Source: Carcharhinus amblyrhynchos (taxonomy: Eukaryota). Taken from it: a stretch of DNA of 64,000 bases. Of this stretch, positions 20,491 through 60,089 are shown in pieces. The position numbers and the translations under genes are program-made. The stretch's first letter is position 1. The number at the start of each line of letters is the position of its first letter. A model generated the notes under the pieces. The model made no database searches. It had not been told where the DNA came from and saw only the letters and a program-made list of their open reading frames with translations. The DNA is taken from positions 65,658,001-65,722,000 of the forward strand of contig OZ336885.1 in assembly GCA_965287045.1 (NCBI GenBank), read 5' to 3'.

Positions 20491-21172
20491 CATTGTTATT
20501 GTTATTTCTACTAATAAAATTTAGCTTAAAACAAGTTGATGTGTTTCCCTGTATGCTGGAGGACCAAGAAATAACTGGTGTTATTTATCTTTCTTACCTT
20601 AATAATAGTGTTCAATTTTCGTTCTCCTGTATGACGAATAATCTGCAACAAATGTTTTTATTCTACTTCGTTTGATCCAATCTTTGTTTTTCGTTTTTTT
20701 TTGTGTTGCTACTATTGCCTGGACAGAAAAGTTGCTCTCCTATCCTCCTTAAATACGTATCGCCTGGTGGCACCAAAATATGCATATATGTCTGTTAGAA
20801 ACAAGTTATTTTAATTTGCACAATGGAGTTTATGGTGATTACCGACATCGAAATTTAAGGATATCAACAGCTAGATGGAAGTGAGTCGATGGTTTCTGCT
20901 TATTTTGCTAGCAGTAATGTCGAATGCTATGATTTTAAGTGGTGCAGTCTCAGTCGAGATCAATAGTAAAGAGTCTAACGTTTTCATATAGTGTTGGATG
21001 CGAATGCAAATTACACATATTAATTGGCATGAAAATGTTACAACTTCCTTCCATTGTGATCATTTTGCTATTCGACCCAGTTTCAGCTAAGAATTTGCTA
21101 ACAATCTCAACTATTGCTGAAGAAAAACATTGACATTGAGCGAACTGCAATATTTTATTTTCTGCTCGCCAG

Positions 21173-21208
21173 ATCTAAATGTCATGTCTGCTAACGTCAA
21201 AACCTATG
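21173..21208 (+). CDS. 36-nt phase-1 mini-exon (D)LNVMSANVKTY
   Basis: tattttattttctgctcgccag|...cctatg|gtgaga. Confidence 0.6.
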
Positions 21209-22289
21209 GTGAGAACAAACAAAAATCCTTGCTGAATTTAAGTTTAAAAAAGTGCACTAACCCGAACCCCTACGTTTTAATTCAACCAAATTCGTATTGT
21301 ATATTATTTTTTTCAGAGTCCTATTTCTTTTCTTTTTTGACATGTTATTTGTATTGAGAAGAGGGGGGAAACAAAGCGTTGCTTTGTTTCCCCTCGCATT
21401 GTCTGGTTGTCGCAATTTTGTTTTCTTTTTCGATTTAAATCGATAGGTCTTTGAAAACAAGTCAATATTGCGGTATTATTCAAGGAAACACAGAAACAAG
21501 TGACAAAATTACTCGACAGACATATATCTTAATGCAACTCTTAGGCTTGGGCGGGGAAGGGAATTGAAGTTAATAATAAAAAAAGATGTGCTGCAGGCAT
21601 TGAAGAGCTCTGGTTTGCTGAAGTTACGAATCCTAACAGTAGTGATTCATACTTTGAAAAATGCTCATTCGTCCAAATTAGAAATTCCACACTGAAATGC
21701 GGACTTGCGACAGATAAAAGTTCTTAAACCGAGTTTTGTCTGAATTCAATTGTAGTGATGCTGATTTGCCGAAACTCGGTCAGCAGAAGTGACAAGTTTC
21801 GGAAAAGTAACGAGCCAACATGTGATACAATTTGCGTTATGCAATTAACAAGATCTTAGAAATGAAAGGAATATCAAAAATTGTTCAATTCGCGCATGTT
21901 TTATTTGATGTGTTGCATCGCTTACAGCTTTCTAATCTATATTACTGCAAGTTAAATGAAAACTTCTCAAAATATTGTTTTGCATAATGTGTTACCTTGA
22001 AATGATAGGCATTGATATTTCGTCAATGCATTTGTGTTTTGTTATAACATATTCATGGCAGAAAAACTGGTCAAAGAGTTTGAAAAAGGTAATGTCAACC
22101 ATTCGTTTTCAGTGCACAATTCCATAACGGGTGTCGAGAAGTTGAGAGTCTTGGAATCTTACCTCACATTGAGAGCGGTTCTGTTTAGTTTCTCTTTACT
22201 TAATTGATGTCTGGTGTAATGTCATTTTCTGCACGTCTGGCATCACTGTCGTTCAACCTGTGCATTCCTGATTTAGTATTTTTCTTCAG

Positions 22290-22343
22290 CCCCTTCCCTC
22301 GTTTTCGTTCTGATGATCAAAGACCTGAACAAAAATATAACAG
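22290..22343 (+). CDS. 54-nt phase-1 exon (A)PSLVFVLMIKDLNKNIT
   Basis: atttttcttcag|...aacag|gtactc. Confidence 0.5.
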
Positions 22344-23224
22344 GTACTCAATTCCGCTAGCCTCAACAACTGGAGGTATTCACTCACCTAACAGTCTACC
22401 GAGGAATATACTTGAACATTATTTGTAATCGACCGGCATTTCAAAGATTTAACTGCAGTTCCGTCACCGCTGTTGCACATCTTGACTCCGACCATCCGCA
22501 ATAACGCATAGAGACTCTGCATACGTGGTCAATTTGCTGGCATGTCTATGTCTATGCAATACAAGTATCATGGGAAATTCCTTTGCTCGAATTGACGTGT
22601 GGTTGCACGGTGAAATCTTCTGTCCAATCGTGACGTCGTCGTTTTGCTTCAGAAGCTAAGAATATATGATAACCGAGGATTGTTACGCTGAATTCAAGGC
22701 AACTGAAATTAGCTGTGGTGTATATGTCAAATCGGTATGAGATTCCTCGTTCTTCTGTCATAGCATCTATGAACAAAATTCTTATTTGCTTCAAGAAAAA
22801 ATGTATGTTTTAATGGCGCCTAATCCAACATTGTATTTTAATAAATAGCATAACAACCAATGCAGCACACGCTTCATTTAAATATGCGCCCAACTTTGTT
22901 GTGCACCATTTTTGTGAGTCATTTTCTGCGTGGAATTGTGGCGCAATAATGCAAAATGTTTTTAATTTATTTAGTAATATGTTGCAGCATTATCTGATGA
23001 AGGCCATTCTCCTTTGCACGTCATCAATTGGACGTTAACTCCACTTGTCATTAGCAGAGAAGCCACACATCTGCCACGTTGCAAGTCCCTCAGATGAGCA
23101 CTGAAAGGTTTTGAGTTGCGGTGAAAATCATCGAACTGTATACCAAAACCAACCAGTTTCAGAAGATACACCTGGCGTGATTATCAAGATATTTTGAAAA
23201 AAAAAATCCCTGTCATTGACACAT

Positions 23225-23583
23225 ATGAGGCGATGGCCGAGTGCTCTTATCGCTTGACGATTACTGCAGAAATTCAACTAATGTTCAATGACTCAGTTTC
23301 GAATCCCACCGCAGCTGGTGGTGGAATTTGAATTACATTTAAAAAAAAACTATAATTAAGAATGCAATAATGGCGATGAACCCATTGTCTATTGACGGAA
23401 AAAAAATGTGGTTCACTGATGTACTTCTGTGGAGACAGGCTGTCATCCTTAACCGAAATGTCCTAGATGTGACTTCAGAAATATGATTGACTCTCAACTA
23501 CCTTTTAAGGTCAACAATGTGATTGGGCAAAAAAACATGGCTAGCCAGCTACAACCATGCAGAATGAACGAATTAAAAAAAAA
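23225..23583 (+). mobile_element. Degenerate tRNA-derived SINE of a second (non-HE1) shark family
   Basis: B-box-like gtttcgaatcccacc, body ggaatttgaatt..ggttcactgatgt, tail gattgggcaaaaaaacatggctagccagc..aatgaacgaattaaaaaa resembling the LINE end near 50620. Confidence 0.7.
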
Positions 23584-24985
23584 TCAAAGCTTGTTCAACA
23601 AACTACCTTGTTTTTGTTTTCCGTGCGGCTCTTCTCCTATCTAGTCTGAGATATGAAAAACTACTTACATCGTCTGTGCTATTTAACATGAACAATAACA
23701 TCGTCTGCAGCTGTACCGAAGCTCTGAATAATACAGCAGAAGCTTGAAAGATATAAATATATGTTTGATGGTATAACAGTGTTTCAAGATTAATTTCCTA
23801 AACGGGTAGATATTGCATGCCCGCTTTTAGGCGTACGTGAAAGTCCGCATGCAATATAATGGATAAGGCTGACATGGTGCCAGCATATTTAAAGTAATCG
23901 AAATAATGGCACGCAGGAAATAAATTAAAATTGGGGTTTTGATTTGCTGTTAAGCATTCTCCGAGAATATAACAAAACCTGCTGCAGCTTCAATTTGGTC
24001 CCGAGAAAAAAACTCGAACCTCAGATATGTCTTGTTTATCTTCACATTTCAGGCACTAGCGTTCCTTTCTCACGTGTCTTATTCCAATTTGTAAAGGAAT
24101 CTATTATTTCGTTAGCTTTCCTGAGTTCTGATGATAATTCGTCCAACTGAATAATAAACGCAGTTTGTCTCTTTCAAAGGAAGTCGCTTCGCTTGCTGAC
24201 CATTTGTATCCCTTTTGCCCTTGCACGGAATTGGGGAGAATCCTTGCAATTTTGTTACCTTTTTGAGCTGAAGTGAGGCAAAGTTGACTGCTCTACAATA
24301 CACCCTGATGTTCACTATTCTTTGACCATATGGGATTTGGATAGCAGATGAATTGGCAATAACTGTTCCAGGCCCAACCGAGCTATAAGTCTGTTTGGTG
24401 TCAAAGTGGGCATGCAAAAAGTCTGACATCATATGAGAGTATTTAAACTAATTTAAATGATAACTGAAGGAAGTAAAGAGTTTGTTTATATGTATACATA
24501 TATATACATGATACCTATATTGTTAAGCTTTCTCGGAAAGGATTGCAGAACCAGTCTACATACCAGGTTGCAAGTGACAAAATTTGCGGTTTTATCAATA
24601 ACATGGAGGCGTCTGAGGGGATTTAAATATTGTTGTTCATATTTTTCACAATGCATAGATTATTTGCTCTTTGCGCTTTAGTTGAAGAACAATGTTAACA
24701 TATTTTCTGGGAACTATACTTTACAGAAAAAGAACATTTTTTTAAGACGACTGGTAATTATCGAATTGCTATGTCATAAATTTGTGGGACAGATGTACCA
24801 TGTTCGATGCGACAGTGCAGGCAGTACAGAAAAAAATATCTGACCCTTGGCGTAAGATTTGAAATTTATCCTGAGATGCTATAAATTTGTTTTCGAATAC
24901 AACATGAATAGTTAATACAGACTTGTCTTGTTGGTCATAATTCACGCATCCTCTTGTGAATAATACTTTTGTCACTGAATTTCAG

Positions 24986-25012
24986 CGACTAAATATCTCG
25001 AAACACAGACCC
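24986..25012 (+). CDS. 27-nt phase-1 mini-exon TKYLETQT
   Basis: gaatttcag|...gaccc|gtaagt. Confidence 0.55.
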
Positions 25013-25982
25013 GTAAGTAAACTACAGCATGGTATTTTTACTCAAATTATTGAATAGAATGTCAGCACAGTGTGCAAATGAGCTGAGGGACATCCTCTGC
25101 TGATCAGGCAGAACTATATGAATCCAAACCTAAAATGCACAATGAAGCAGGAAAATCAAATGAATTTCAAATTTTGTTTGGTTTGTTGACAAATGGTAAT
25201 TTCGTACATTGTTTTCGTGCATGTAGATTTCGTTCCATCAACATAACGTTCTTTAGTTAGTTGAGTCTCGCAATGCAGTGTTCCAGTCATTACTTTAATC
25301 ATGATCATATCAAATTACATTCAAAATATTTTTGTTCATGAATTTGTGCAATTATGTTTGCTAACGTGCCTGATAACCCAATAATGATCTCTCTGGGCAC
25401 ATGTTAGTTTGAATTGAAAACAATGTTGAGGTCCACCAAGGGCTAATAATATGGGGGTAGTGATGTTGTATGTTGTCAACCAATCTTGCATCTTGAGCCC
25501 TACCTTCCTGCCTGAGTTTGCAAGCTGTTCATCTTACCAATAGGCAAGGTCAATGGCTCCAGTGTTAAATAGAGCCATTCTGACAAATGCCAAACAAGTA
25601 TGTGAAATGGTCATCCTTCGACACTCCTGCTCAACCAAAAGTTTCAGAAGTTTCAGGCAACCTTTTCAAACAGCATGTGCTGGCTGGCTGTGTGATTGAA
25701 ATAAAGCTGACACCGCGGATTCAGTTATCACAAAATGGATTAATACTAATCGATTGTCATTGGTTACCTTGAATATTTTCCCCCATCTGTCCCCATCGAA
25801 GCTTAATGGTACGGTCAGAAGTCCGTTTAATGATGGATACATGGAGGGAACTAATGAAAACCTTTTACACCTACGCGATCGTGAAGTATTTCGCTGTCAT
25901 CCACCAGAAACTCGCATTTGGAGGGAAGGGGACATCTATTTCAGTAACACATTTGAACTGCTCTGCGTTTTACGTGCAAATA

Positions 25983-26248
25983 AAGTAAAGTGACGTTTAT
26001 TAATCACAGTAAGAGTTACGCTAACATTGCAATGAAGTTACAATTGGACTCCTCTAGTCGGCACACTCCCGCACTCTGTTTGGCTCAATGCACCTAATCA
26101 GCACTCCTTTCCGTCTGGGGAAGGAAACCTGCGCAGACACGGGAGAACGTGCAATCTCCACCCAGAAGTGACCCTACCAGAGAATCGAATCCGGGTCTCT
26201 GGCACTGTGGGGTAGCAGTGGTAACCACGGTGCCAACGTGTCTCCCAC
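25983..26248 (-). mobile_element. HE1-like V-SINE
   Basis: Reverse complement cccacagtgccagagacccggattcgattctc..gcacgttctcccgtgtctgcg. Confidence 0.8.
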
Positions 26249-26909
26249 CTAATGCTCATGTAAATGTCGGCAAAAAAAAACAGCAGTACTGTTGCTCACA
26301 TTGATAGTGACCTCAAGCGTCAGTTGTGCTTCCCATGTTTCGTAATCTCTGAAGCTGTGGATTCAGTTGACTTTGTGAATACCTGACATCGTATAGCAGG
26401 CTGACTCAGCGAATGTTGCATTTTGGCGTTGCTAAACTTCAGGAGAAATATGAAACCATGGCCCTGTTAATCCACACGAGGTGAGCATGTGTGATTTATT
26501 GACAAGATTTCGAAAAGGAGCAAGAAAAGCCACCTTTGATTTTTTTTTCAAATATCTACCTCACAAACAACAATACTAAAACAAATTACCTAGCCATTAG
26601 CATACTTTCTAATGGTATCTTGCACTGCCCAACGTGTCTGCCATATTCAACATCACAACATTAGGAGCACTTTAAACTGCCTCATTGGCTGAAAAATATT
26701 TTGGAGGCTCCTGACATATTGGACACACAAATGCAAGTTATTTCTCTTTTTCTGGTACAAATTTGCTGGGTACTTCTCACGCTAGCTTGAATTGTCATTT
26801 TTTTCTTTCAACCAGGCTAATTTGAAATGCATCGGCCAATCTTCGCTACATGAAAATGCAGCTGCTTGTTAAGCCACTGAAAGACAGGGTGAAATTCCAC
26901 AGCTGGACA

Positions 26910-27222
26910 TCAGGGAGCACAATATTCAGTACCCCTGCCTGGGCCATCTAAGGAGCATTGTTCAGTTCCGAACTCGGATGACTGCCTGTGTCGATATCTG
27001 ACTTTCCCCTATGTCTGCAATGGTTTCCACCGTGTGTTCCATTCTCGCCTCCAGTCTAAAAGTTCACTAGTTAATGTCCATGCAAAATTGACCCGTTCGT
27101 GCCAGGAAGATTAGCAGATTAATTGTTTGAGATAACGGGGATAGGACCTGGGTAATGTAGTTGTCAATGTAGGATTAATGGGATGATGGCCTCCTCGTGA
27201 ACTTTGGAAATCCTATGATTTT
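26910..27222 (+). mobile_element. Degenerate HE1-like SINE
   Basis: atgtctgcaatggtttccaccgtgtgttcc..gatggcctcct..tcctatgatt. Confidence 0.65.
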
Positions 27223-27669
27223 ACTCGAAAAACGAATTTAATAAACTGATAAATACTTAGAAGGAGTGCATGATTGAACACGCGAACTTTTGTGAAGACA
27301 AACCAATGAAAAAGAATACGTACAATATTACTTGGGAAAACGGAACATGAATCGATTGTTCAGGTTTATCACCACGGATTATGTTTTTTTTTCTCTTTAC
27401 TTGTATTAAAGATTGTCCATTTAGTGAGCCACCAATCAATCATTTAGATGCCTTGTTCAAAAGTTCATTTCAGTAGCAGCAAACACTAAAAAAAAACTGT
27501 TATTGGGAATCGACTGAATAATCTATAGTTGTGATGCAAACGTCCTCGAATTCCTTTTATTCTCTTGGGTTTGTATTGCACTTCATCTGAGTATCATTTT
27601 CATTGCCCACATTGGACCACACGGGAAATCAAAGTGATGAATTCCATGATATAAATTTGCGTGGATTTG

Positions 27670-27693
27670 GTGTGTGTGTGTGTGTGTGTGTGT
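27670..27693. repeat. (TG)n microsatellite
   Basis: Direct reading. Confidence 0.95.
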
Positions 27694-28879
27694 GGTGTCT
27701 ATGCGTGTGATGGGGGAAGGGAAGAGGGCTGGATGGGGATGGATGACAGTGGGCTGGAGAGGGACGGCACTGAGGGTCCCACGGTTATGAAGCTTAAAGA
27801 ATAATTAGACTTCCTTTTCAAAACCTCTCCTTAATTACAAGTCGTCCAGGAAACCGCTGTTGATGTATTGGAGTGGATGAGGTCCCGTTCTGTCTTCCAA
27901 TTGCGTGTTTCAGGTGAATAATCTTTCCACGAAATAAGTACTTATCTTCTGCAATGAAATTTTCCAGCATCGTGCCGACGATATCACAGGATGGGCTTCA
28001 GTGGAACACAGCAAGGAAAGGAAAGGAATGTCTATATCTCCGGCTTCATTTCCTAACATGCTGAATTGAGGCCTGTGTAAGAAATTAAGTTTGCTGTTGT
28101 ATCCTAAGGTGTTAAACGATGAGGGTTAAGGATGTGCTGAAACAGATAGAAAAGACAAATCATGAGACTGGCTGATGCTGAAACATGCAGAAAAGAAAAA
28201 CATGAGACTAGCAGACATCCAAGGTCTCCAGCCCAAATAAGAAGCCACCTGGCCTTAAGAAAGATATGTAGCCTGACTAGCAATTCTATCAAGCGTAACC
28301 ACAGTAAATCATTAGGACGAAGAAATAATAAGATGCTGTTTAGACCAAGGACACATAAGATAAGTCCTGGATATATACATATAACTAATTTACTGGACAA
28401 TGATTAAAGCGTTAGCTGAGATAATGGAATAGTAGGGTGTATTGTATTAAGTACGAAACCTTGTTTGTTTCACTGTATAAATATAGCATGGATTTGCTCG
28501 GAAAGTCAGTGTTCAGTCTCGGTGTTGACTGGAGTGGACTCTCCGTGATATCACGAAAAATAAACTCTCCCGAAGCTTGACTCTGAAAGAATCTGCCTGA
28601 GTTATTCTGAGTTAAGGGTTTTTCGTCGACAAGGCCCAAAGCTACCTAAACCATCAGGCACACTTTCCACCACTTGCCGTTTATTACAACACATTCACCA
28701 GTTTTTCGAAGTCGTTTTTCGCGACACCTCTACATATTTTGTCCCTGCCGCCTTCGACACACTGGAAGTTCTTGCTCATTTCGGCGTCTTAGTAATTTAG
28801 GATTATGCTTTGAACTGAATGACCTTCCTCTGAACTGCAGGGATTCACTCAATTGATGGTTTGAGTCACTATTTTTTTT

Positions 28880-30372
28880 AAGAACATAAGAAATAGGAGC
28901 AGGAGTAGGCCATCTGGCCCTTCGAGCCTGCCCCGCCATTCAATAAGATCATGGCTGATCTGTCGTGGCTCAGTTCCACTTTCCGGCCCTCTCCCCATAA
29001 CCCGTAATCCCCTCTCCTATCAAAAACCCATCAACCCGCTTCTTGAAAATATTTAGCGAGGCAGCCTCCACCACTTCAACGGGTAGAGAATTCCAGAGAT
29101 TCACCACCCTTTGAGTGAAGAAGTTCCTCCTCAACTCCGTTCTAAAACGCCCCCCCCCCCTTTATCTTGAGGCTGTGCCCCCTAGTCCTACTGTCTTTTT
29201 TGAGCGGGAAGAGTCTCTCCACCTCTATCCTATCCATCCCATTCATCATCTCATACGTCTCAATGAGATCTCCCCTCATTCTTCTAAACTCCAACGAGTA
29301 CAAGCCTAGTTTATTCAGCCTCTCCTCATAGCCCAACCCCCTCAACTCCGGTATCAGCCTAGTAAACCTCCTCTGCACTCCCTCCAAGGCCAAAATATCT
29401 TTGCGCAGGTGCGGCGCCCAAAACTGCACACAGTACTCCAGCTGCGGCCTCACCAATGCCCTATACAGCTGCAGCAAGACCTCCCAACTTTTATATTCAA
29501 TCCCCTTCGCTATGAAGGCCAGCATCCCATTCGCCTTCCTGACCACCTGCTGCACCTGCAAGCTGGGTTTTTGCGACTCATGCACAAGGACCCCGAGGTT
29601 CCTCTGCACCGTCGCCTGCTGCAGTTTTTCGCCACGTAAGTAATAGTCCTTCCTACCATTCTTCCTACCAAAGTGGACCACCTCAAACTTGCCAACATTA
29701 AATTCCATTTGCCATTTCCTGGCCCATTCGCCCAGCCTATCTAGATCCTTCTGCAGACTCTCCACACACTCCGCACAATTTGCCGTTCCCCCAATCTTGC
29801 TGTCATCCGCAAATTTCGACACCCTACACTCGGTTCCCTCCTCCAGATCATCTATATAAATGGTAAAAAGCTGAGGCCCCAGCACCGACCCCTGGGGCAC
29901 TCCACCAGTCACCATCCGCCAATCCGAATAGCACCCGTTGACCCCCACTCTCTGCATCCTATTTGACAACCAATCCTCTATCCACACTAACACCCTACCC
30001 CCAACTCCAAGCCCCCTGACCTTCTGCAATAACCTCTTATGAGGTACTTTGTCAAACGCTTTCTGAAAATCCAGAAAGACCACATCCACCGGCTCTCCTC
30101 TATCCACCGCCCTAGACACATCCAACTAGAACTCCAGTAAATTTGTCAGACACGACTTCCCTTTAATGAAACCGTGCTGCGTCTGCTCTATCAAGCAATT
30201 CCCTTCATGATGCCTCGCAATTTCCTCCTTAATGACGGATTCTAACATTTTACCTACCACAGACGTTAAACTAACCGGCCTATAATTCCCTGCCTTTTGC
30301 CTGGCACCCTTCTTAAACAACGGCGTAACATTAGCCGTTTTCCAATCTTCCGGCACTTCCCCGGAATCCAGC
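28880..30372 (-). mobile_element. Young 5'-truncated CR1/HER1 LINE with nearly intact RT domain
   Basis: ORFs 30126-30356 and 29142-30125 lie in one frame separated by a single TAG: NYRPVSLTSVVGK..QHGF..FLDFQKAFDKVPH..GVPQGSVLGP..KFADDSK; AAGAACATAAGAA tail at 28880. Confidence 0.98.
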
Positions 30373-30577
30373 GATGAAATTCAGCAACACATTTTCTTCC
30401 CACACTATTCCGCTACTATTTTTGTTCCTACTGAATTCGAAATGCTTCGGGATCCTGAGCTCTATTTCATTCTCGTTTATGAAGTACTATCATCAAGTCA
30501 GAATGCCCAATGCGTTGAGCAATTCTGATACATGTTTTCAATATCACTGTGCTCAAAATGATTCCCCGCACTTTCAC

Positions 30578-35300: not shown

Positions 35301-35654
35301 ATCATTCCAAAATGCGTGTGAACTGATTGGAATCTATAGTGTTCAGAAATGGCAAAATTGGTCAGATATAGGCTGGCTAATTCGAAGTGAGATGAGAGGA
35401 ATCGTTTGGCTGAAAGCCAGGAAAACTGTGGAATTCATAACTATGAAAAACTGTGGCGACAATGAAAGGTCGTCCTATTAATAGCCATGTTGATACTAGA
35501 AACTTAGGACACTGCTGGGACCATCTACCATGATCACGTTGAATATCGGAGCAAGCTCGATTGTGCAACTGACCTAAGATTGGAAACATGTAATATGCAA
35601 GTAAACTTGCTAAAGTCATACTTACATACAGAAACGCATTAATGTATATGAAGA

Positions 35655-36210
35655 ATAGAAATAAGAACATAAGAACATAAGAAATAGGTGCAGGAGTAGA
35701 CCGTGTAGCCCTTCGAGCCTGCCGCGCCATTCAATAAGATCATGGCTGATCTGAAGTGGCTCAGTTCCACTTTCACGCTTTCTCCCCATAACCCTTAATC
35801 CCCTTGCCTACAAAAGCCTATCTACTCGCGTCTTAAATTTATCTAGCGAGGTAGCCTCCACCACTTCAACGGACAGAGAATTCCAGAGATTCACCACCGT
35901 TTGAGTGAAGAAGTTCCGCCTCAACTCTGTTCTAAACTGCTCTCCCACCCCCCCCCCCCCCCCCCACTTATCTGGAGGCTGTGCCCTCTAGTCCTGCTGC
36001 CCTTTCTGAGCGGGAGGAACCTCTCCACCTCTACCCTATCCATCCCTTTCATCATCTTATACGTCTCAATGAGATTCCCCTCATCTTTCTAAACTCTAAC
36101 GAGTAGAAGCCCAGTCTATTCAGCCTCTCCTCATAGCTCAAACCTCTCAACTCCGGTATCAGCCCAGTGAACTTCCTCTGCACTCTCTCCAAGGCCAAAA
36201 TATCCTGGCG
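35655..36210 (-). mobile_element. Young short 5'-truncated CR1/HER1 LINE
   Basis: (AAGAACAT)n tail and 3' UTR closely matching 28880-29400. Confidence 0.95.
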
Positions 36211-37249
36211 ATACATTTATGGAAGACAAACCAAGATTCCTTGTCTTACAAGGCAGGAATTAAAATTGAAACACAGAGGTGACAGATGACTTCAAACAAG
36301 GATTCAAGATTGGGATGGCACGATGGCATAGATGGAAATGTACAAAAACTCACCCAGAACCATGAACTATTGAACATCGACCACATTAACTGTGATGTGA
36401 TTGCTCACGTGTGTTATCAAATTGAGGAGTTGGTCTTGAAAGTATCTCCAAACAGAACTGCCAAACAAAGATCCAACTCAGGGGATTTCAACTCACTGTT
36501 CAGGATTCCATTCCCTCAGATATATGAGTACGCATGAAATGTTCAATTCCTTAACTTTGGCCATGCCGAGAAGACGGCTAATGCATCAAATTTGAGAATT
36601 TCCCATTTTTGGCCAATGCCATGGCGTTTGGAATATTCATTTGTCTTCTCCAGGATGCCGTGACGTGATAAGTGCAATTCAACTGGCTTCTGCACAGAAA
36701 TCGCTTAAGTCGTAGCTTGCTGTTATGTTGCTTTTCTTCAACGGGATGTCCTGGCTACATCCTCCTGCAATCTTGGTAACTGCGTGTTAGTTTTTTCAAT
36801 GAGATTTTTTTACCCTCTCTCTCGCTATTCCCTCCACATTGCTCTTTATAAAGTAACTCAACAAGCTAATATTTAGAAATTCGATCATGTGATCTGATGT
36901 GTCCTCTCTCCTAATCCTGCGTGCAGTTGTGCAAAATAACTACCTTTGTGAGACTCGTTCCAGTTTAATGCATACTGGCACACGACTCTCTAGCAGACAT
37001 ATTCTCGAAAAATCAGTTGCTGAGTCTTCGACTTAAATCAATGTAATATTCACGCTACCTAACAATTTACTGCAATATTGATATATAATGAAAGTGTACA
37101 ATTAAATTTAGTATGTTGTGAAGTTCGATTACTTTTCAAAGGCCCGTTTCCATGATAAAACAAGAGCAATTATTGATAGACTGAACTGAATATAAGAAAA
37201 AAAACGAGGTTTATGATTTTTTATATTTTGTCGGTTCCTCCTTCTTCAG

Positions 37250-37285
37250 AAAAAGACGCATGGAAGATGGATTTGGACTCTTTAA
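37250..37285 (+). CDS. 36-nt phase-1 mini-exon KDAWKMDLDSL
   Basis: ttcctccttcttcag|...tttaa|gtgagt. Confidence 0.7.
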   Translation, partial: KKTHGRWIWTL

Positions 37286-44427: not shown

Positions 44428-44454
44428 ACGATCAATTGCAGGTTTGCTTAAGTG
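44428..44454 (+). CDS. 27-nt phase-1 mini-exon DQLQVCLS
   Basis: cacttcatttcag|...aagtg|gtaaat; continues the heptad register of the previous exon. Confidence 0.65.
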
Positions 44455-45209: not shown

Positions 45210-45251
45210 AGTTGAAACAATGCAAGCAAAATGAGAAAGACAAGGACAGAG
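45210..45251 (+). CDS. 42-nt phase-1 mini-exon (E)LKQCKQNEKDKDR
   Basis: tttgttcattgcatttcag|...cagag|gtcagt; exactly two heptads. Confidence 0.7.
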
Positions 45252-46737
45252 GTCAGTCAAAATTATTCAAGGGCCTTGAATTGGTGGGCAGGAAACAAGC
45301 TTATCATCAATATTGTTGTGACACCAGATAAAACACAAACACGCACTGTAGGAATTTCTGTACTCTAAAGGTGTTCAGTAGAGCAGGGAAAGCGACAACA
45401 GGCCAAGCCCTGAAAAAAGAAACATTAAGTTTCAACTGTCATCGCCCTTTAAAGGAACAGTAAGACGACATCCTTCACAATCTGATCGTTAGCTGAAGGA
45501 AGCAAGATCAATGTGGAGTAACAAATTGATAGGAAACGTGGAACGTCTACTTTGTTGTCAAATACAAGAAGAAAGATTTAGCTTAACAGTTGACAATCTT
45601 GAAACAAATCTCCATCTTGGCGGGGGGCTGCATATTTAAAATCGGTGCCAATGCAGGGAAAACAAATGTTGATGTGGCCAGAAGAGAAGTAAAGTGCCAA
45701 TAGTTGCAAGAAAAAACTAAATGTGTGCTTATTGTAACTAAATGGTGAGGAAGTCACGTTACGATCTAGTTTAATTTAGAACCAAGACATTATGAATACA
45801 GCGTTGAAGGATACGTCAGTTAACACAATGCAAACATCGGCGTCTTCAAATGGAATATAACCAATACAAAAAAAAATAAACTCACGAGTACAGCAAGGAG
45901 TAAAATAAGTTATACACGGAGGAAGTGACGTTGATGTGCACAGTAAGGAGAACAATGGGCTTTCTCTTACAAAGGAACTGCCTCCATGAGAGCATCCACG
46001 CTCGAAACAGCGGATAAAAAGGGTTTTCAGATAGGATAGTTGCAGATAATGGTGATACTTCCCCAAGATCGACTGAAAAGTACTTCATGGTACAGAGGAA
46101 ATAATGGACTGGAATTTCGGGTATACTGGCCTTTCAGTTAAAACAAAGCCGATACGGTAGCCATGCAGCAATACCTTAGTGGAGAATGATGGGCATAAAT
46201 TACGTCATTTTGAAACAAGGTTACCTTTTATTGAGAGAATTTGGAATGGGACAGTTTGAATGCATTCGAGCATAGTCATTGTATATACATGTAATTATCA
46301 ATTTTTCGATTAACACATAAAATTAGAGCCGAATTTTGTTTGGTAATGTCCGTACCATCAAAGAAGAGACAAAGCAATCAGATATCCATTATCACATGAA
46401 TGCCGCAAATGTGTTGAACACACATTTCGGGCTCCATTTTATAATTTTGATTCTAAGTACTGGGCGGATTTGAAACTGGGAGTGTTTCATATCGGCGTTT
46501 TTACACGTTCTCAGGCGGTCCCATACGCATTCTACCTGCAAAAATATCAGCGCGTCCGAACGCCCTACCCAAGCCCGCCCGCAACAGGCATGGTTCCACC
46601 ACCATAAAGTCCTAGACCAATTATCGTACGTCCCCCTCGCCACCCGTGCCGATCAAGGTCCGCTCTCCCCTTTCCCTCCACCGATGTCATGCAGATTGGC
46701 AGCGAAACCCACTTTCCCCCCCATTGACAAAGATGTA

Positions 46738-47152
46738 GAACAGAGAACATAGAACATTACAGCGCAGTACAGGCCCTTCGGCCCTCGATGTTGCGCCGAC
46801 CAGTGGAACCAATCTAACGACCCTCTAACCTAAATATGTTAACCATATGCCTATCCACTGACCATTTGAACGCCCTTAAATTTGGCGAGTCCACAACTGC
46901 TGCAGGCAGGGCATTCCACGACCTTACTACCCTCTGAGTAAAAAAACTACCTCTGACATCCGTCCTATAATTCCCACGCCTTAATTTAAAGCTATGTCCC
47001 CTTGTGTTAGCCATCACCATCCGAGGTAAACGGCTGTCACTCTCCACCCTATCCAATCCTTTGATCATTTTGTATGTGTCAATCAGGTCACCTCGTAAAC
47101 CTTTTCTCTCCAACGAAAACAACCTCAAGTCCCTCAGCCTTTCCTCATAAGG
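46738..47152 (-). mobile_element. CR1 LINE 3' fragment (different subfamily)
   Basis: LFSLERKGLRGDLIDTYKMIKGLDRV..TRGHSFKL..FFTQRVVRSWNALP; AGAACAT tail. Confidence 0.95.
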
Positions 47153-47289
47153 CCTGTAGTTGCAGGGGATTTTTTTTTTTAATTCGTGAAGTTCATACCA
47201 ATACTTTTAAGACATATCGTGAGTGGTGAGCAGTGCATTTTCTGCCCCTTGGCAGGGTGATGGAAGTCGTTGACCGCCTTGAATGCATA

Positions 47290-49818: not shown

Positions 49819-49858
<40 letters not shown>

Positions 49859-49895
49859 ATACACATACGCGCACACATGCACAGAGAAACACACA
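49795..49895. repeat. Compound (CA)n/(CACG)n microsatellite
   Basis: Direct reading. Confidence 0.95.
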
Positions 49896-50115: not shown

Positions 50116-50151
50116 AATTAATGACATGCAAACGCGAACTGAATGATATAG
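50116..50151 (+). CDS. 36-nt phase-1 mini-exon (E)LMTCKRELNDI
   Basis: tatcttacag|...tatag|gtaagc; shares ELxxCK with the 45210 exon. Confidence 0.72.
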
Positions 50152-50609
50152 GTAAGCAATCGAACAACACGATTCGAACACATCCTCAAGATAAACCCAG
50201 TGAAAGAAATATGTGGTCATTCGGTTTCAGACGCGATGTCTGAAACAGAAGAGATGTCCAGTTTCTCTTCATGATTTCATTTCATTTGATTATTTAGTTC
50301 GAGAGAGCGAGGCATCAATGTGGCGTAAATCAAAATTGAAAATCAGTTGCACACCAACCTGTGGAGAATTCAGCCGCGATAAGGACATCAATTATTGAGA
50401 AATTGTAGTTTACAACATGAAGACCTATTCACATAAATGTATGTCTCACAATGCATAGTTCTTCAACAGGCGAAATGTGTTATTTGATGAAAATGTTGGC
50501 AAAATTATCAACGTGTCATCATTCAGAACTGTTCACATTGACTCGTATTTTCCCATGTCTCCCACCCAGTCTCCGTTTAATGTACTTTGTCCTCAATTTC
50601 CCAGGCGTT

Positions 50610-51345: not shown

Positions 51346-52498
51346 CTTCAGCATCCGCCAAAATGTAATATTAGTAGTTTTAAATAATCCATATTTTTTC
51401 GCCTCAAACTTCGAAGGCATTGAAAGTTAGTATAACTTGATGGTTGCTGAAACAAGGCAATCCATCAAATATTAGTCTTGCGCCGTCTTTTGATCGTGGA
51501 TTTAACCCTGTATTGACTTTAACTGATTTAATTTCCATTATTCATTGCTAAAAATGACTTAAATGGGCGTGTGCCCGTTGAAACCTGATGAAACATCATC
51601 ATCTCTATTATTCCAAATCCATAGCACACGAACTGGATGCAAAGGAGAAAGGCAAGTCTTACGAAACAAGTAATCGGTTTTTTTTTGAAAAATACTCGCT
51701 TGATAGTTTGACTATTTGCAGTTTCGAAGGAACAACTTGGATTCTTATAATGGTTCCAGGAGTCAAAAAATTAAGTGGAATTAGTATTTGATCGCGAGTA
51801 TCCTGAACATAAACAAGCACGACAGGATTGTTTGGACAACGTTTATAAAAATGTCAATTTCCTCTGAAATTTAAGAAAGAAAGAGTACCATGTTTAGTGT
51901 CTGTGCAGTTGATCAAAAGCAGGTACAAGTGGAAAGGTATTTAGAAACAGGGGAGAATGGTCATAAAGCCAATGGAAAAGTGAACAACGGTCCATTCTTT
52001 TCTTGCATGCAGAGCCAGAAATGCTGGTGATCGGGTGACAATAACATTTTGATAAAATCAAAATGGATCAATAAATTGGAACCAAACTTATTTTCCTTCT
52101 TCGGGAGACGAGTAAGGATATCGTTTCAAAAATGAACCGGAAAGAAACTAAAGAAATGCATGTAGCTGACCAAGTCCTGGGAGATTAAACATTATTTCTG
52201 CTTTTTTTTCTTGTTTAGCATTTCTGCAGGAAGATATTCCGTGTCTCTGACTGTACTTTCACGTATATATTATTAGTTTCTATAGAAGGATACTTGACAC
52301 AACCATGAACGTTGTTTTATACATTCTCGCAATTATTACCACCAGATAGTGAAGTGAAGGATAGTTGATTAGTGGAAATGAATACATACTTTCTGAAAGT
52401 AACAATAACTGATAACACAAAATTAAAGCATTTTAATCTATTTCCCGTTTCTTGTAAAACTAACATGTAATTCTTATACCACATTCACAGTAGAAAAA

Positions 52499-53120
52499 CG
52501 AGGCAAGCCAAACTTATTCAAGTCAGTTTGACGAATGTAGCATGAAACTACACGTTTAATTCAAATTGGTCATATCACTGTGAGAAAAGAAAAAAAAAAT
52601 ATTAGTTTACTTGAGTACCAATTTTACAAATTGAAAATTAGTCATTTATCTTCCGGAGGGAAATTCATGAGGGAAAAATAAGTTATATTTTTTCCAGTTT
52701 TGTTTTTAACTGTTTTACTATTGCTACGCACTTTTCATTCTACATTTCAAACTTAAGTTTATTAATGTTCTTCCATTCACACTGTTTTTGTCCCTCTGCC
52801 TCTGCCTTCACGAGGCAAGCCAGATTTATTCATGTCAGTTTGACGAACGTAGCATGAAACTACACTTTTAGTTCAAATCGGTCATATCACTGTGAGAAGG
52901 GGAAACATGCATTAGTTTACTTGAATGCCAATTTTGCAAATGGAAAATTAGTCATTTATCTCCCGGAGGGAATTTCATGCGACAAAAATAGGTTCTATTT
53001 TTCCAGTTTTGTTTTTAACTATTTTACCATTACTACGCGCTTTTCGTTCTACGTTTCAAATTTAAATGTATTAATATTCTTCCATTCACACTGTTTTTGT
53101 GTCTCTGCCTCCGTCTTCAC
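52499..53120. repeat. Tandem duplication, two ~311-bp units
   Basis: 52499-52810 and 52811-53120 both begin cgaggcaagcca and end ttccattcacactgtttttg..ctctgcctc..cttca; visibly high identity. Confidence 0.97.
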
Positions 53121-54604
53121 TCTTTCTTCAGTCCACGTCTTTATTGCTGCCATGTTCCATTTTCAGTCTTGTAGGAGGATTATTGAAAATTAAGTGATGC
53201 TGTAAAATTATAGTTGTTGAACGGCATTTGACAATATTATTTGTTGTGTGGTTTATTTTATTGGGCTGATGCGGTTCACTAGCTCATTTTTTTTTCTTTT
53301 TATATAATGAAAATTACTCGAGAAACATGGGGTCCATCGTCCCCTGTCTATGCAGTTCACCATTGGAAGGATTTGTTCCTCTGAGACACATTTAGTCATG
53401 CTCTACTCCGAGGTAACACTGTGCAAAACAACGGTCTTATGTTGAACCTGTAGCAGCCTGGCGTCACAACTCCGGAGATCTATACTTGAACTTGTGCTGT
53501 TCCTTGAAACATCCCGTTAGCTCACAGCTTAATTCGTTTAACGTTCTGGAGCTTCGTATCCTGGTACTCTTGTCTTTAACTCCCTCTCTTACCAAGAGTA
53601 TATGAACCAACCTTTCTGACGGCTAGGATATGATGGAAGCATGGGGAGTAAAATGAATACACTCGGCTAGTCATCAGCAAACGCAGATACATATTTTGTT
53701 GCCACGGTCTGCAACCAAAGGTTTAGAAATGATGAAATTTCGTATTTTATGCAAATGAATAAAGGTGGAGCTGTGACAAATAATATATAGTACAGGTTTC
53801 TTCACTGATAAACAAAACTAATGACTGATGATCCTTAAGTGAGGGCAGATGCTTTTATGTTCTTTAAGTCAAATGACGACAGATGCTGGGATCTGAACCT
53901 AAAAAGACAATACACTGGAAAATCTCAGCAGGCCTGTCAGCATCTGTGTGGAGTCAGAGATACTAAGATTTCTTTTTCACTCTCTCTTTTGGTGTCTTTA
54001 TGTCCATGTATGCCTGCATCTAATACCAAGACGATGGCAACGAAAATGATTTTCAATCATCCTATTTCTCTAAAGATAGCAAATCATAAATTTTGAAACA
54101 ACATACCATAATAATAAATACTACAAATGGTTAGGAAATGTGCAATTATGTTACTGAAGCACGCACATTTCTCGAAAAAAAAAGCACTTCTGGGTCGCAG
54201 CCTTCTTTGTGACAAATCTGCGGTGAACATCATCCTGTTAAAATACGGATTCATAAGGTCACGCGCTCGTTGCTCAAAGCTACTTATTGCTTCCTTTGTG
54301 TAGCTATCAGTTTGACGCAACTTATTGATACTTGCATTAAATGAGCAGGCTTAAATATGTATAGTAAGTGTGCTGTGCTGAAAAGGCTCAGAAGTTTATG
54401 TTCTTTTCTTCTAACGGGCGAAATGTTACATAGTTAAGTTGCTTTGTTATTCACATTCATTGAGAAACATCCTTATGCATTCACTGATGGAATCATTCAA
54501 TGTAGAATGTCGCACCTGGCCATAAATCAATGACAATAACGTTTGCGGACGATCAGAAGAAAATCATATAAATTCACATAATCCTTTTTGACATTTGTAT
54601 TTAG

Positions 54605-54640
54605 AACTCGATCAGATGGATCAAAGGGCGCAATCATTAG
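54605..54640 (+). CDS. 36-nt phase-1 mini-exon (E)LDQMDQRAQSL
   Basis: catttgtatttag|...attag|gtaagt. Confidence 0.72.
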   Translation, partial: NSIRWIKGRNH

Positions 54641-55364
54641 GTAAGTCTCAGTTGACCTGGGATATGAGATACAGCACGTATTAGTTGGAATACTCTTTTG
54701 TTTCTTTCTTCAAAGCTGAAATTTGGCTGTAGTTGGTTCATGTCATTGGGGATGGGGGGGGGGGAGGGGATGGTGGTGCATTGCAATCTACAGCAGTCGA
54801 CTCATATTCAACACATCAGCAATTATCGTCGCAAGAAAGTTGTTTTTGCTATGTGGAATTTCAAGTCAAACGTGATTTGAGTTATGTGATATTTCGAACT
54901 GAATTAATTTTCTTCGCATAATTTGTTATCTTCAAAATAAATGTTCAGGAAGCATTCCCATTTCCATTACATTCCAAATAATATTGGCGTTGAATTTGGA
55001 AAAAAAAGAAAAAAAAACGTGTTTCCTTTTGTACGTCACCCTCAGTGTTTCGTTGTCAATGGGAATGAATATTCGGAGGGCAAATTCCCAAGCATTAATT
55101 GCAGAACTGCATATTTAAACGTCATGATAACGCCTCGCATACAAATATTTGACTGCAACCTAATTTCTCCGCATTCGTGAATTGAAATTGAATTCTGCCA
55201 TGGCAGCAACTGTCCTCGTGATGGAGTTATTTAATCCAGCATCGGTTCCACTTATCTGGAACAATGTATCTGAGCTCAACGGTTCGGAGTTGCTACATAT
55301 GCAACACATTGGTGTAATATAATTGTCAAGGTAGTACATCCGGCCATAAACCTTCCCTTTATCC

Positions 55365-55389
55365 ACACAGACACACGCGGGTGCGCGCG

Positions 55390-55434
<45 letters not shown>
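55365..55434. repeat. Compound (CG)n/(CA)n microsatellite
   Basis: Direct reading; alternating purine-pyrimidine. Confidence 0.95.
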
Positions 55435-55438
<4 letters not shown>

Positions 55439-56542
55439 ACAAAGCCATTTTCGTGCTTCTATAGCTATGTTTTCAGCCTATGTTGACTTTTTTTTTACAA
55501 TTTTACTGTGAAACTCGTACATTACACTGCAACGGAAGCGACCTCAGCGCAAAATCCATGAATATTTTGTTTGATGTATGCTGAATGTTTCTCACTTTTG
55601 ATATTTGTACCGTGGTCCATTGCCTGAAATAAAGAAAACGACAATGTTTCCAATAAGATGATGTGCTCTTTCTCATGTTCGGAATAAGGTACCAGACAAA
55701 TAGTTCTCACAGCCGTGAATTAATTTGTTTTTGGAGTAGAATTCTACACTTTAATTGATAACAATGTTCTCTTTGTCTTATTATTAACGCATTGATTTGT
55801 ACCAAGTACACATGGGAATTTAGTTGATTTATTTTACTGGAATATTTTTTAAATTATTTGTGTGGATACTTCACAGAAGACAAGAACAAAAATCCACGCT
55901 GGTACAACTTCGAAATACCGTGTGATTTCACACATTTCTTCCAGCATTGTGGATCATAAAACTTTAAAAAAAAACGCCTTTTCAGTTTGTTCTTATTTCC
56001 CCGAGGGAATGAATCCAATTTGAACCGTAGCGTCACGCTTGAAGCATTTATTGGCCAGGACATATTGATCATAATTAAGCATTTTATGGTAATGATCATT
56101 TGTGCGATGCCATCTCGTTCAGAGATGGGGAAATCTCACAACTCATTCCAAATGAAATGTTTCTGATTTTATTCTCTTTTAATCTGCATGCCTAAAATGT
56201 AAGACATTACCTTTTTTTTAAAATGTTCAGTGACAGGCTGTAAGTACATTTGTGGAGTGCTCAATACATTTTTGAAAGGGCATTACGCCATTTGTATTAT
56301 TCCTGGAGTATTTCGGATTCCCTAATTAGTCTCCCTTGGAGAGTTTCAGTCATATTCACCACTGTCTGACTAGGTGTTATATATTCTGTGTCTTGCTAAC
56401 ATCCATGACATTCCTAATAGATGTTACTCTAATTATGCATTTTCGTGATTCCAGGACTTCTATTTTCACTTAGGAATTCTGTGTCATTCAATATATTGTC
56501 ACAATGAACCATAAAGTTAATGCTCTACATTACCTGCTGCAG

Positions 56543-56569
56543 AGAGACAACTGAAGGACGTGAGTGAAA
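56543..56569 (+). CDS. 27-nt phase-1 mini-exon (E)RQLKDVSE (alternative internal donor at 56560)
   Basis: cctgctgcag|...tgaaa|gtaaat; extends the heptad of the 54605 exon. Confidence 0.45.
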
Positions 56570-56721
56570 GTAAATAATTACTTATTTTGTGATATTCAGA
56601 ACAATCATGCGAACGACCCATATGCGTATCATGAAATTCCATTTCTAGATTGTGTGTCACGTCTAACAATGAAAAAGCTGACCACTTTGTCCCCAAAATC
56701 TTATAATTCTAGTGCTCACAG

Positions 56722-56739
56722 TGAAATGTGGAGACAAAG
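56722..56739 (+). CDS. 18-nt (or 27-nt from 56713) phase-1 mini-exon KCGDK
   Basis: ctcacag| or ttctag| ...caaag|gtaaga. Confidence 0.55.
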
Positions 56740-57229
56740 GTAAGATATCACATTTTAAAGAACAACTTATATGATGCTGCCCAGAAAATTATTACAGCTA
56801 CTCATTTTGACCTAAGCAGCTGAATATGAACGCATGCAATGGTAGATATAATGAGGAATGTTTTCTCCTACCCAAAAGAGCGTTTGCTGATAGATGCAAG
56901 TCATTTTTTTCACAGATATGGCAAGCCCCTGCAAGAAGCTACAAATCCTGATGAAACAAAATACTCAGTCCCTCAGTCCTTCATTCCAATGGTGTCTGTG
57001 AGGCACAAGTGAACAGAACGAACAAATCTTTTTTTTGCCTTATCTAAGTAACACTACACCCCGAATCCGAAACTTACCGGTCTGAGACTTGGAAAGGTTT
57101 AGTGACTGGTCAGAACAATGTTCTGCGGGAAGTAATTTCAAGGAAACACAACAGTTTCGGGGGAAAAAAGTAATTCTTCAAATCTGTCGTCAAGGACCAA
57201 TACTTAATTCTGTGACCGTGCCTTTTGGT

Positions 57230-57920
57230 GTGACCATCGAATTATTGGAAACATCCTCTGAACCTCTGCCCTAAGACCAGAAGAACGTCATATAATTCAA
57301 TCATATCATCTGAGTTCCAAATAACAACGGAACAACGTGTTTAATATTTCATAATATGGAAAGCCCTCCGAGAATCCATTGTCTGAAAGGCCTCCAATAA
57401 TAACGCATCATTCCTTAAAAAGAGGTGACCAAAAATGCACACAGTATTCTTACTTTGACATCATTATTACTCTGCATAGTTTCCGCAACACCTTGTTATT
57501 TTCTATCACAGTGACATTCAAAAAAAATACCAGCATACCATCTCCCTTGCCAATAAACTGCTGCAACACTTTTAGTTGATTTACGTTTCATGAACAAGAA
57601 CACCTACGTCACCTTAAGCAACTCCTTTCTGAAGTCTCTCTCCCTTTAAATTATAACCTGCTGTCTCATCATTTCCTCACTTCTAGTTAGAATCATGTGA
57701 TTTCATATTGGCAAACAAATATAGGGCTGGTCAGCTGAACAAATACATTGATTCTGTCTTAAAAAAATAAGCTACGTAACATTTTCGAACATTGCACTCT
57801 ATGTTTTTTCTTCAAAATGTTTGTCCATTCTCTCAACTGTTAAATGGTTCTCTGTAAAATACGTGCATTCTGTTTGCAGCGTCATTCTCACTTATCATGG
57901 TATGGTCCGCAAATTACGGC
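57230..57920 (-). mobile_element. Old CR1 fragment
   Basis: gaggtgaccaaaaatgcacacagtattct (reverse of EYCVxFWSP) and flanking remnants. Confidence 0.7.
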
Positions 57921-59520
57921 ACACTATAAGATTTCTTTATTTCTAATAATGTTTTTCCGTGGTAAGCGTTAAACACAGCGCTGATACTTTCGGCTTCCCC
58001 ACCAATGATCCTGCGACATTATTGTACAATCCAGAAAGCTTGTCTTTTGGTTCTCTAAAGCATGATTTCTGCTCCTCAAAGCTTCAGCAGGTTTCACTAT
58101 AATCACCAGGCGGGATTCCAGAAGTCTTTCCACTGGACTTTAATTGGCTTGTAAGGTTTTTTTTAGTATTTGGATTTATGTAACTATGCATTCTTAGGAG
58201 GGAAATAAGATCATGACGACAGCTCAAGTGATGAAAGTCCTTTCGTTATCAGCTGTAACCTTTAGGGTAGTTTAAAAAGGACATCAAGCTTCAAAATAAG
58301 TGATTACCTTCCTATTTATTATTTTGGAAATTCTGCTCGTAATCTCGAAGAAAGATCTTAACTTCCAGTAGTAAAGATTCCGCATTTGATGGCACCACCA
58401 GAGTGTCTGTCTCCGAAATTCTGAGAAGCTGCTTTCATTCCAACTTGTTTTGAGTTAATATGGAGAACTGCAGACTTCAACCAAATGATTCAACTTCCAG
58501 TATGACACATGCATTAGTCTTTTCTGTGCTGAATGTTCTGTCTCTGGAAGGGATTAGTTTTGATTGGAATATATTATGTATACTTCTTAAGGATCATGCA
58601 ATATGATGTTTGTTGTGTTTCTCTTGTTTAATTTATAATCATTTTTTACTAATTATCTGAATGTACGTGTTCTCTGTATACTTAACTAAACTTTTTTTGA
58701 TAAAGCTCCCTAGTGGATCATTACACATCCCTGAAGTCAAACATGTCATGCTTAACCTAGTCAACTTCAAGGGGCAAAATTTATGACCCATGTTGCTTCC
58801 AGTAAACACCTTGGAGTCTCTGATCTGAACCATAACACTCTTCAAAATTCCCTCGTCATTGGTCGTTAGTTCTTCATTGTTAACTAATACCCTATCCAGG
58901 CCAGGATACCAACAGCAGCACCATGAACTCCCATAATAGATTGTTGCGAGGCACATTTTTAAAAATGAAAATATGCAACATCGATTGGTTGCCCTTTATA
59001 ATTTCGTGCTGAACCATTCTGAAATAACAATTATAATTGTGTCACAAAATCGTGGAAGCATTTTTTGATGAGATTCTGGCTTTCTAAATTATACTTTATT
59101 ATTCTCTTTATAATCAATTTTTGATATGATTCAAATAGCTGCCTGGACTGTAGCTTCCTGTATGACGCATAAGCCTATTTGTGAATAACGTTATCAATTT
59201 GTGAGTTTCACAATTCATTCACATTCATCCTGAATACAATGAGTTTTGTGAAGTCGTGGCATTCGAGGGATGAGACCTACAGCTACCATTTTTATGATCC
59301 TGGGAGGAAACAATTAGTTCGAATGGAGGTGAAATCCTTCCCCACTAGTGTTTTTTTTCTAGAACTATTTATTCGATGATTTTTCCACATTTAATTCCAA
59401 CCTGATATTTCCTCCCGTTTTTCGAACTGTGTTGTCTTTCCAGGATGCTGATGGCATCTTCCATTGTAGCTAACGACGGCAAATTTCTACTCAACTCCTC
59501 TATAATTTACTTCTGTACAG

Positions 59521-59580
59521 GAAACGCCTCGTATCCAGCCAGCAAAAAAAATACTCAAGTGCAAAACACAGACCATCATC
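59521..59580 (+). CDS. 60-nt phase-1 exon (G)NASYPASKKNTQVQNTDHH
   Basis: tttacttctgtacag|...tcatc|gtaaac. Confidence 0.5.
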
Positions 59581-59614
59581 GTAAACGTTCATACTGTATC
59601 AAAATAAAACTAGT

Positions 59615-59825
59615 ATTATGGATGTTGGAATCGGAAAGAATTTAAGGAAAACATCATCAGGTCTGGCAGCATCCCTGCAGAGCCAAACGAACAATTATTT
59701 CGAATCGAGATGACAGCAGCGTCCCGGGCCACCTCTAACGAAGGGTTGTCATCCAGACGTGCTGAGATGTTATACATTTCCTGTTTTTGATTTCAAATCT
59801 CCATGTTCGCGTTTTTGGCGTGGCA
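59615..59825. mobile_element. Decayed palindromic Penelope-derived short element (a related half copy lies at 53878-53960)
   Basis: gatgttggaatc..caggtctggcagcatc..tctaacgaagggt..gctgag..catttcctgtttttgatttcaaatctcca. Confidence 0.55.
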
Positions 59826-59923
59826 ACTGTAAATGCTTATACTTCCAAATATTCGTATTGATATATTGTAAAACTAATACCTAATTTCAATAATTCAGGG
59901 AAAAATATCAAATTATTCTTTAG

Positions 59924-59956
59924 GTCCAGCGACTGTCGCTCTGAGGCAGATGGAAG
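59924..59956 (+). CDS. 33-nt phase-1 mini-exon PATVALRQME
   Basis: ttattctttag|...ggaag|gtaact. Confidence 0.62.
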
Positions 59957-60063
59957 GTAACTAATGTGAACTCGCCGTTTCAATTTAGAACTGAAATGCT
60001 TACAATATTGACAAGATTTATCTTAATGAAATTTAAAAAAAAAGACTTTGTGTTAATTTTCAG

Positions 60064-60089
60064 TGAATAGTCAGCTGGTTGCAGCATAG
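60064..60089 (+). CDS. Candidate terminal coding exon (V)NSQLVAA*
   Basis: tgttaattttcag| phase 1, TAG at 60087-60089; an AATAAA lies at 61201. Confidence 0.5.

Follow-up and report, generated by a model that had tools for sequence, protein, structure and literature searches.

A 64,000-nucleotide stretch of the genome of the shark Carcharhinus amblyrhynchos (C16:65,658,001-65,722,000 in a 2.9-Gb genome; hereafter the window, with positions below 1 or above 64000 given in its extended numbering) raises the question of which gene a series of tiny exons on its forward strand belongs to. An initial annotation had joined thirteen such segments into a hidden, self-contained 40-kb gene for a cysteine-containing coiled coil. 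Our sequence analysis indicates, with a probability of about 0.6, that the window instead carries some twelve exons from the middle of a single giant gene, which extends from about 65.53 to 66.44 Mb of C16 and ends in a B30.2 domain, and that the 40-kb gene model is likely wrong.

All thirteen segments are present where they had been placed, each preceded by AG, and the twelve internal ones are followed by GT, have lengths that are multiples of three (3n) and are open in phase 1; the segment at 60064 runs to a TAG, as had been claimed. With a generic splice matrix, the twelve internal exons rank between 4 and 289 among the 8336 AG-GT pairs of the window, and lengths of 3n occur in 24 of 54 strong sense candidates versus 12 of 30 antisense ones. 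Within the window alone, this matrix leaves the proposed enrichment of 3n, phase-1 exons indecisive, but the enrichment is clear over the wider region described below. When splice sites and composition were modelled from 111 mini-exons, all of them outside the window, the trained model gave the first seven places in the window's span to seven of the claimed exons, and it called 7 sense and 0 antisense exons at scores of at least 10 and 9 sense and 3 antisense exons at scores of at least 8. The twelve internal exons thus appear mostly real, but those at 59521 and 22290 are weak. The exon claimed at 56722 is probably a longer, 27-nucleotide (nt) form that opens at 56713, judged by the paralogue described below; the trained acceptor score favours 56722. 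Not noticed initially were an exon of 21 nt at 186 and a candidate at 22062, as well as the next exons beyond the window, one of 36 nt at 64085 and one of 27 nt at 65723.

The series continues well outside the window. In 1.26 Mb around the window that were read without gaps (600 kb of them upstream), together with samples further out, a mini-exon array was found on the window's strand; relative to the window start, it extends about 125 kb upstream and about 775 kb downstream. Over 794 kb (-130 to +664 kb), a score of at least 9 yielded 150 sense versus 6 antisense exon calls. The sense calls, many of which are the model's own training exons, amount to 1,524 codons and include 66 exons of 27 nt, 56 of 36 nt and 11 of 21 nt; since this threshold regains only 7 of the 12 claimed exons exactly, plus the shorter form of an eighth, the true exon number is probably higher than 150. 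Lengths of 27 or 36 nt are found in 94 of 393 strong sense candidates of this region versus 10 of 260 antisense candidates, and a phase-1 reading frame is open in 90 of the 94. The exons of 21 nt are grouped in a block between about -125 kb and window position 186. A pattern for cysteine-containing 27-nt exons gave ten matches, two of them in the array, with three for the control, and the search with a 21-nt exon pattern gave zero matches. Other arrays occupy the minus strand below about 65.43 Mb, where they start head to head with the window's array at about -230 kb, and the plus strand between 62.6 and 63.07 Mb. Within the window's array, a tandem unit of about 10 kb, present in up to four copies at +291 to +332 kb (L050-L054), carries 36- and 27-nt exons, and its copies diverge at a rate close to neutral.

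A minus-strand array at 64.36-64.52 Mb, 1.2 Mb away, matches the window exon for exon, and both copies have the rare lengths of 42 and 33 nt and three cysteines in common. The best collinear chain between the window's array and this inverted paralogue comprises 29 pairs and scores 473; shuffling the order 20 times gave a mean of 262 and at most 294, and antisense candidates gave 45. A few pairs (the first two and those at 50116 and 67101) are probably noise. Eight of the twelve claimed internal exons are held in the chain and a ninth (56722) matches by eye as the 27-nt form, while 21173, 22290 and 59521 have no partner. Downstream, the chain passes 59924, resumes at 64085 and 65723 and reaches 154,555, the end of the fetched paralogue. 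As blastn between the two copies returned only repeat-like or short matches, one of them over exon 56543, the introns of both copies have diverged, yet frames and splice sites are retained in both. This retention, the near-uniform phase of the 27- and 36-nt exons and an intact B30.2 exon followed by polyadenylation words make it hardly credible that the array arose as a chance chain or is decaying as a pseudogene, an idea that the stop at 60087-60089, the neutral look of recent duplicates and the failure to find protein relatives would favour.

At its end, the plus-strand array presents exons of 36, 21 and 27 nt and then the B30.2/SPRY exon (Table 1); a second array, at 63.149 Mb, has a like ending of a 21-nt exon, a 27-nt exon and B30.2. 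The B30.2 exons of both arrays reach 47.9 and 42.3 bits with PF00622 (SPRY; curated cut-off 26.3), and 80 matches to solved structures likewise place the domain in the B30.2/PRY-SPRY superfamily. The best of these matches, to TRIM58 (64.3 bits), BTN3A3 (60.6) and BTN3A1 (60.3), are too close to be separated. None of 453 candidates passed when the exon was compared with proteins of 297-2000 residues, a search that missed even known BTN and TRIM proteins, and a single-sequence fold was uninformative (predicted local distance difference test, pLDDT, 34.7). Scoring of 150 of 328 candidates in the genome revealed seven close B30.2 copies, of which one is on C9 and the other six are on C16, with mini-exon arrays upstream of several sister exons; by this scoring and a local search, the window's array holds a single B30.2 exon of the subfamily on the window's strand. 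A pattern for 27-nt exons matched at six places in the genome, each of them upstream of a B30.2 exon on the same strand, three on C16 and three on C9, where the B30.2 is of a more distant type; the reversed control gave three matches. The array that ends at 63.736 Mb on the minus strand may be as long as 1.7 Mb. Strand, phase 1 and the presence of only one such exon in the array suggest that the B30.2 exon splices to the window's exons; that all exons of the array are joined in one transcript is inferred. Large clusters of other B30.2 exons, some adjoining butyrophilin-type IgC matches, occur at C9:95-112 Mb and on C41, C46, C53 and C73 and probably represent the BTN/TRIM region.

The protein predicted from the mini-exons conforms to the coiled coil proposed initially. 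The quoted heptad positions (L,L,L,E,L,L and L,C,C,K,C,I) were reproduced, the core shows a hydrophobic period of 3.6 (p = 0.006 versus 500 shuffles), and a period of 3.4-3.65 was found in eight of ten sampled stretches of the array. The initial annotation was right about symmetric phase-1 mini-exons coding for a cysteine-containing coiled coil. In the gene that we propose, at least 150 such exons, distributed over about 0.9 Mb, would splice into a rod of a predicted 2,000 residues or so, capped by a single B30.2/SPRY domain. Dimerization through the coiled coil would then hold two ligand-binding B30.2 heads on the tip of a rod that, if unbroken, would measure some 250-300 nm, like an extreme version of a butyrophilin/BG tail. 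Since all exons have lengths of 3n and are of phase 1, the frame is preserved when any of them is skipped, duplicated or lost, and stalk length could therefore vary between isoforms and paralogues; such gain and loss in frame would fit the tandem duplicates and the exon differences between the two arms. By analogy with BG tails and the B30.2 of butyrophilins, the most likely function would be that of a dimeric, cytoplasmic spacer or tether.

The limits that the initial annotation had set for its gene, a start at 20860/20875 and an end at 60064, would belong to a different organization, namely several shorter tandem genes of which the one in the window would encode a secreted protein of about 175 residues (20875 to 60089) and only the last carries B30.2. 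An unbroken frame leads from the ATG at 20875 to the stop, TATA-like and CCAAT-like words were seen by eye upstream of 20875, the acceptor at 60064 is good and an AATAAA follows at 61201. The donors after 20875 are weak, however, and signal-like ATG segments across the array span (13 sense versus 10 antisense) are no commoner than expected by chance. At the place matching 60064, the paralogue has an internal 27-nt exon, it is internal on both sides of the block, and the matched chain, resuming at 64085, continues for about 94 kb past 60064; between 60089 and 64085 no signal-like first exon was seen. We consider several tandem genes unlikely. The signal-like open reading frame (ORF) at 20875 is probably due to chance, or at most an alternative start, and 60064 would represent either an exon that has decayed or an early end, used optionally, that yields a form without B30.2. 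Among 1.84 billion protein representatives no relative was found for the 30-residue signal-like ORF, nor did a database search find one for the 40-residue frame with exon 59521 (both weak negatives), and for the stretches 59480-60300 and 20560-21260 no recent retrocopy or close DNA paralogue was found. A cluster of small secreted proteins was also considered and was dropped after the signal-segment counts, the weak donors and the paralogue match across 60064.

Several points weigh against one giant gene. Its 5' end, or true first exon, was not located in the 600 kb read upstream, where a 120-nt phase-1 exon at -165.6 kb, beginning with a short hydrophobic stretch, may belong to the 5' region; the array itself was read except for 66.322-66.362 and 66.372-66.412 Mb (80 kb together). 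At +169.9 kb (L028:5941-6012), a 72-nt phase-1 segment that is signal-like or resembles a short membrane segment and has usable splice sites could be the start of a second gene, as several tandem genes would have it. The order of the upstream 21-nt block relative to the paralogue's 21-nt block is no better than shuffled (136 versus a mean of 135), so that strand, phase and block order alone tie it to the window. The substitution proportions between the paired exons of array and paralogue, pN (nonsynonymous) 0.38 and pS (synonymous) 0.64, count in favour of one gene but give a ratio that is biased low because pairs were picked by similarity, and in six recent tandem exon duplicates elsewhere in the arrays (22 changes only) pN (0.119), pS (0.106) and flank divergence (0.126) are so similar that no purifying selection is seen there. 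Finally, cysteine occurs in 64 of 274 exon peptides, which would also fit an extracellular protein.

A single giant gene might be secreted or membrane-anchored and form a disulfide-stitched extracellular fibre with a B30.2 tip and its leader exon elsewhere. Cysteines are frequent at core positions, three of them are retained in the paralogue, and a split leader might end in the hydrophobic opening of the 120-nt exon. The 274 exon peptides show no enrichment of N-glycosylation sequons (5 versus 9.5 expected), which leaves secretion unsupported by this count, and no convincing leader exon was seen upstream. In the surroundings of the array no convincing transmembrane exon was seen either, which goes against the membrane protein that had been suggested. 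Also, the heptad tails of BG are cytoplasmic, some of them with cysteines, according to PMC5938342. An extracellular fibre is therefore improbable, and we favour a cytoplasmic rod.

By definition, the proposed gene would be neither a butyrophilin, a BG gene nor a TRIM gene, but its tail appears to be built like theirs. The comparison with heptad-encoding exons of butyrophilins and BG made in the initial annotation thus led to the right superfamily, as the array ends in B30.2, but the defining domains of neither family were found. Butyrophilins consist of IgV, IgC2, a transmembrane region, few heptads and B30.2, as described in PMC4046983 and PMC8813856. Like them, the array has heptad exons followed by B30.2, with BTN3A among the best solved-structure matches; unlike them, it has a heptad region of about 150-200 exons, and no IgV, IgC2 or transmembrane region was found here, where the 5' end was not located. 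Chicken BG proteins have one IgV domain together with a transmembrane region, and their tail comes from 27-37 exons of 21 nt; BG and the 'zipper protein' share a long coiled coil made from 21-nt split-codon exons, with variable exon number and truncated forms (PMC5938342). The array resembles BG in its own 21-nt heptad exons (11 of the 150 calls, plus a block on the paralogue arm), whereas BG lacks B30.2 and the array is mostly composed of 27- and 36-nt exons, has several times more of them and carries B30.2, with Ig domains not found. With TRIM proteins and pyrin it has in common a coiled coil and a C-terminal PRY-SPRY, TRIM58 being the top solved-structure match. TRIM proteins require RING and B-box (PMC4046983, PMC8813856 and PMC5938342).

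Could the array nevertheless be a true butyrophilin or TRIM gene whose Ig and transmembrane or RING and B-box exons lie further upstream or were missed? The B30.2 domain scores alike against both families. Ig, RING and B-box motifs are absent from the contiguous 1.26 Mb outside repeats, however, apart from five isolated short matches, and Pfam analysis of 60 selected of 1,065 upstream ORFs revealed no Ig, RING or B-box domain over cut-off. Among 150, 80 and 60 ranked ORFs near the window, only two domains, seemingly of one retroelement, passed the Pfam cut-off. None of the 56 genome matches to C2-set_3 lies on C16, IgC-type matches being on other contigs, and the room upstream is limited by the opposite-strand array at about -230 kb. 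We judge this possibility very remote. TRIM coiled coils are short and coded by few exons. Schistosome micro-exon genes have symmetric tiny exons that permit modular splicing, like those of the array, and encode unrelated small secreted proteins without a heptad rod or B30.2. Tetherin and PLVAP possess cysteine-containing coiled coils with an exon structure that differs from that of the array; the lead towards this group, raised initially, was not borne out, since PF06637 (PV-1) matches only on C26 and no convincing transmembrane exon was found in the array. Enterophilins, a further group comparable to the proposed protein, are cytoplasmic and combine an extended leucine zipper, of about 30 heptads in mammals, with B30.2 and without Ig or RING. 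The enterophilin-1/SNX1 paper is cited in a review (PMC13749957).

Table 1. Exons and related features of the window and its array (window numbering unless a contig is named; scores are those of the model trained outside the window)
Feature	Position	Strand	Observations
21-nt phase-1 heptad exon	186..206	+	score 11.4; last of the upstream 21-nt run
Signal-peptide-like, ATG-led hydrophobic ORF	20875..20941	+	donors -4.6, -2.4, -2.5; no second copy
36-nt phase-1 exon	21173..21208	+	score 14.4; no paralogue counterpart found
Candidate 27-nt exon, uncertain	22062..22088	+	score 8.9, inside antisense noise range
Candidate 54-nt exon, uncertain	22290..22343	+	score 5.5; no paralogue counterpart
27-nt exon	24986..25012	+	outside-trained model; first of block common with inverted paralogue
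36-nt exon	37250..37285	+	outside-trained model; paralogue chain
27-nt exon	44428..44454	+	outside-trained model; Cys retained in paralogue
42-nt exon	45210..45251	+	top score 17.4; Cys and rare length common to paralogue; BLOSUM 32
36-nt exon with Cys	50116..50151	+	score 16.8; weak paralogue partner, BLOSUM 8
36-nt exon	54605..54640	+	outside-trained model; paralogue chain
27-nt exon	56543..56569	+	paralogue chain; blastn match
27-nt exon, or 18-nt form from 56722	56713..56739	+	Cys-Gly retained in paralogue
Candidate 60-nt exon, doubtful	59521..59580	+	score 1.5, poor donor; no counterpart between paralogue-matched neighbours
33-nt exon	59924..59956	+	rare length common to paralogue; BLOSUM 25
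Likely intron past window end	59957..64000	+	then 36-nt exon (L006:85-120) and 27-nt exon (L006:1723-1749)
Acceptor then stop, no donor	60064..60089	+	acceptor score 4.0, top 2% of AGs
Terminal B30.2 exon	C16:66,436,397-66,436,911 (L189)	+	phase 1, about 170 codons, stop, polyadenylation words after
Sister B30.2 exons	C16 63.736(-), 63.149(-), 63.068(+), 61.084(-), 60.449(-) Mb; C9:106.38(-) Mb		38-58% identity to that of the array

To the right of the array, at C16:66.66-66.82 Mb (L134:7674-8372, L136:7189-7359, L137:3-857), lie a GPR15-like receptor and an exon for a cobalamin-binding protein (PF01122), as well as an ORF without Pfam match that we take, by eye, to resemble TMEM246/PGAP4. In an intron of the array, an ATG-led ORF of 137 codons with a hydrophobic start, an acidic middle and a phase-1 donor runs antisense (L018:3601-4014, minus strand); no relative of it was found. 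The introns of the window contain multi-copy repeats at 4375-5289, 28878-30374, 35572-36325 and 46736-47156, most of them with reverse-transcriptase-like ORFs and presumably long interspersed nuclear elements (LINEs) of the CR1 type. Elements resembling long terminal repeat (LTR) retrotransposons or retroviruses, with zinc knuckle, protease or integrase matches, are present at L065:4624-6672 and in L143, and gag-like ORFs were recognized by eye in L153.

In the literature covered, which left most subscription papers, supplements and annotation names aside, no description of a mini-exon coiled-coil B30.2 family was found, and a 2026 survey (PMC12841164) describes ordinary butyrophilins for cartilaginous fish, its accessible text containing nothing like the gene proposed here. 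A broader proposal, which we put forward as possible rather than probable, is that cartilaginous fish possess a family, so far undescribed, of genes on the megabase scale, six or more of them on one chromosome, each with some 100-250 interchangeable phase-1 mini-exons that would encode B30.2-tipped adjustable rulers of several hundred nm. Mass skipping and tandem gain of exons would generate diversity of length and surface, and the family might correspond, in vertebrates, to micro-exon genes and form a branch of the butyrophilin/BG/TRIM lineage that lacks Ig domains. At least 62.6-66.44 Mb of C16, and more at 60.4-61.1 Mb, looks empty in ORF and domain scans and appears to be protein-coding. 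If the exons of the array do form one gene, it would be among the most exon-rich of vertebrate genes, it would unite a long BG-like heptad tail with the B30.2 of butyrophilins and TRIM proteins without Ig or RING, and it would bear on the origin of butyrophilin, BG and TRIM tails.

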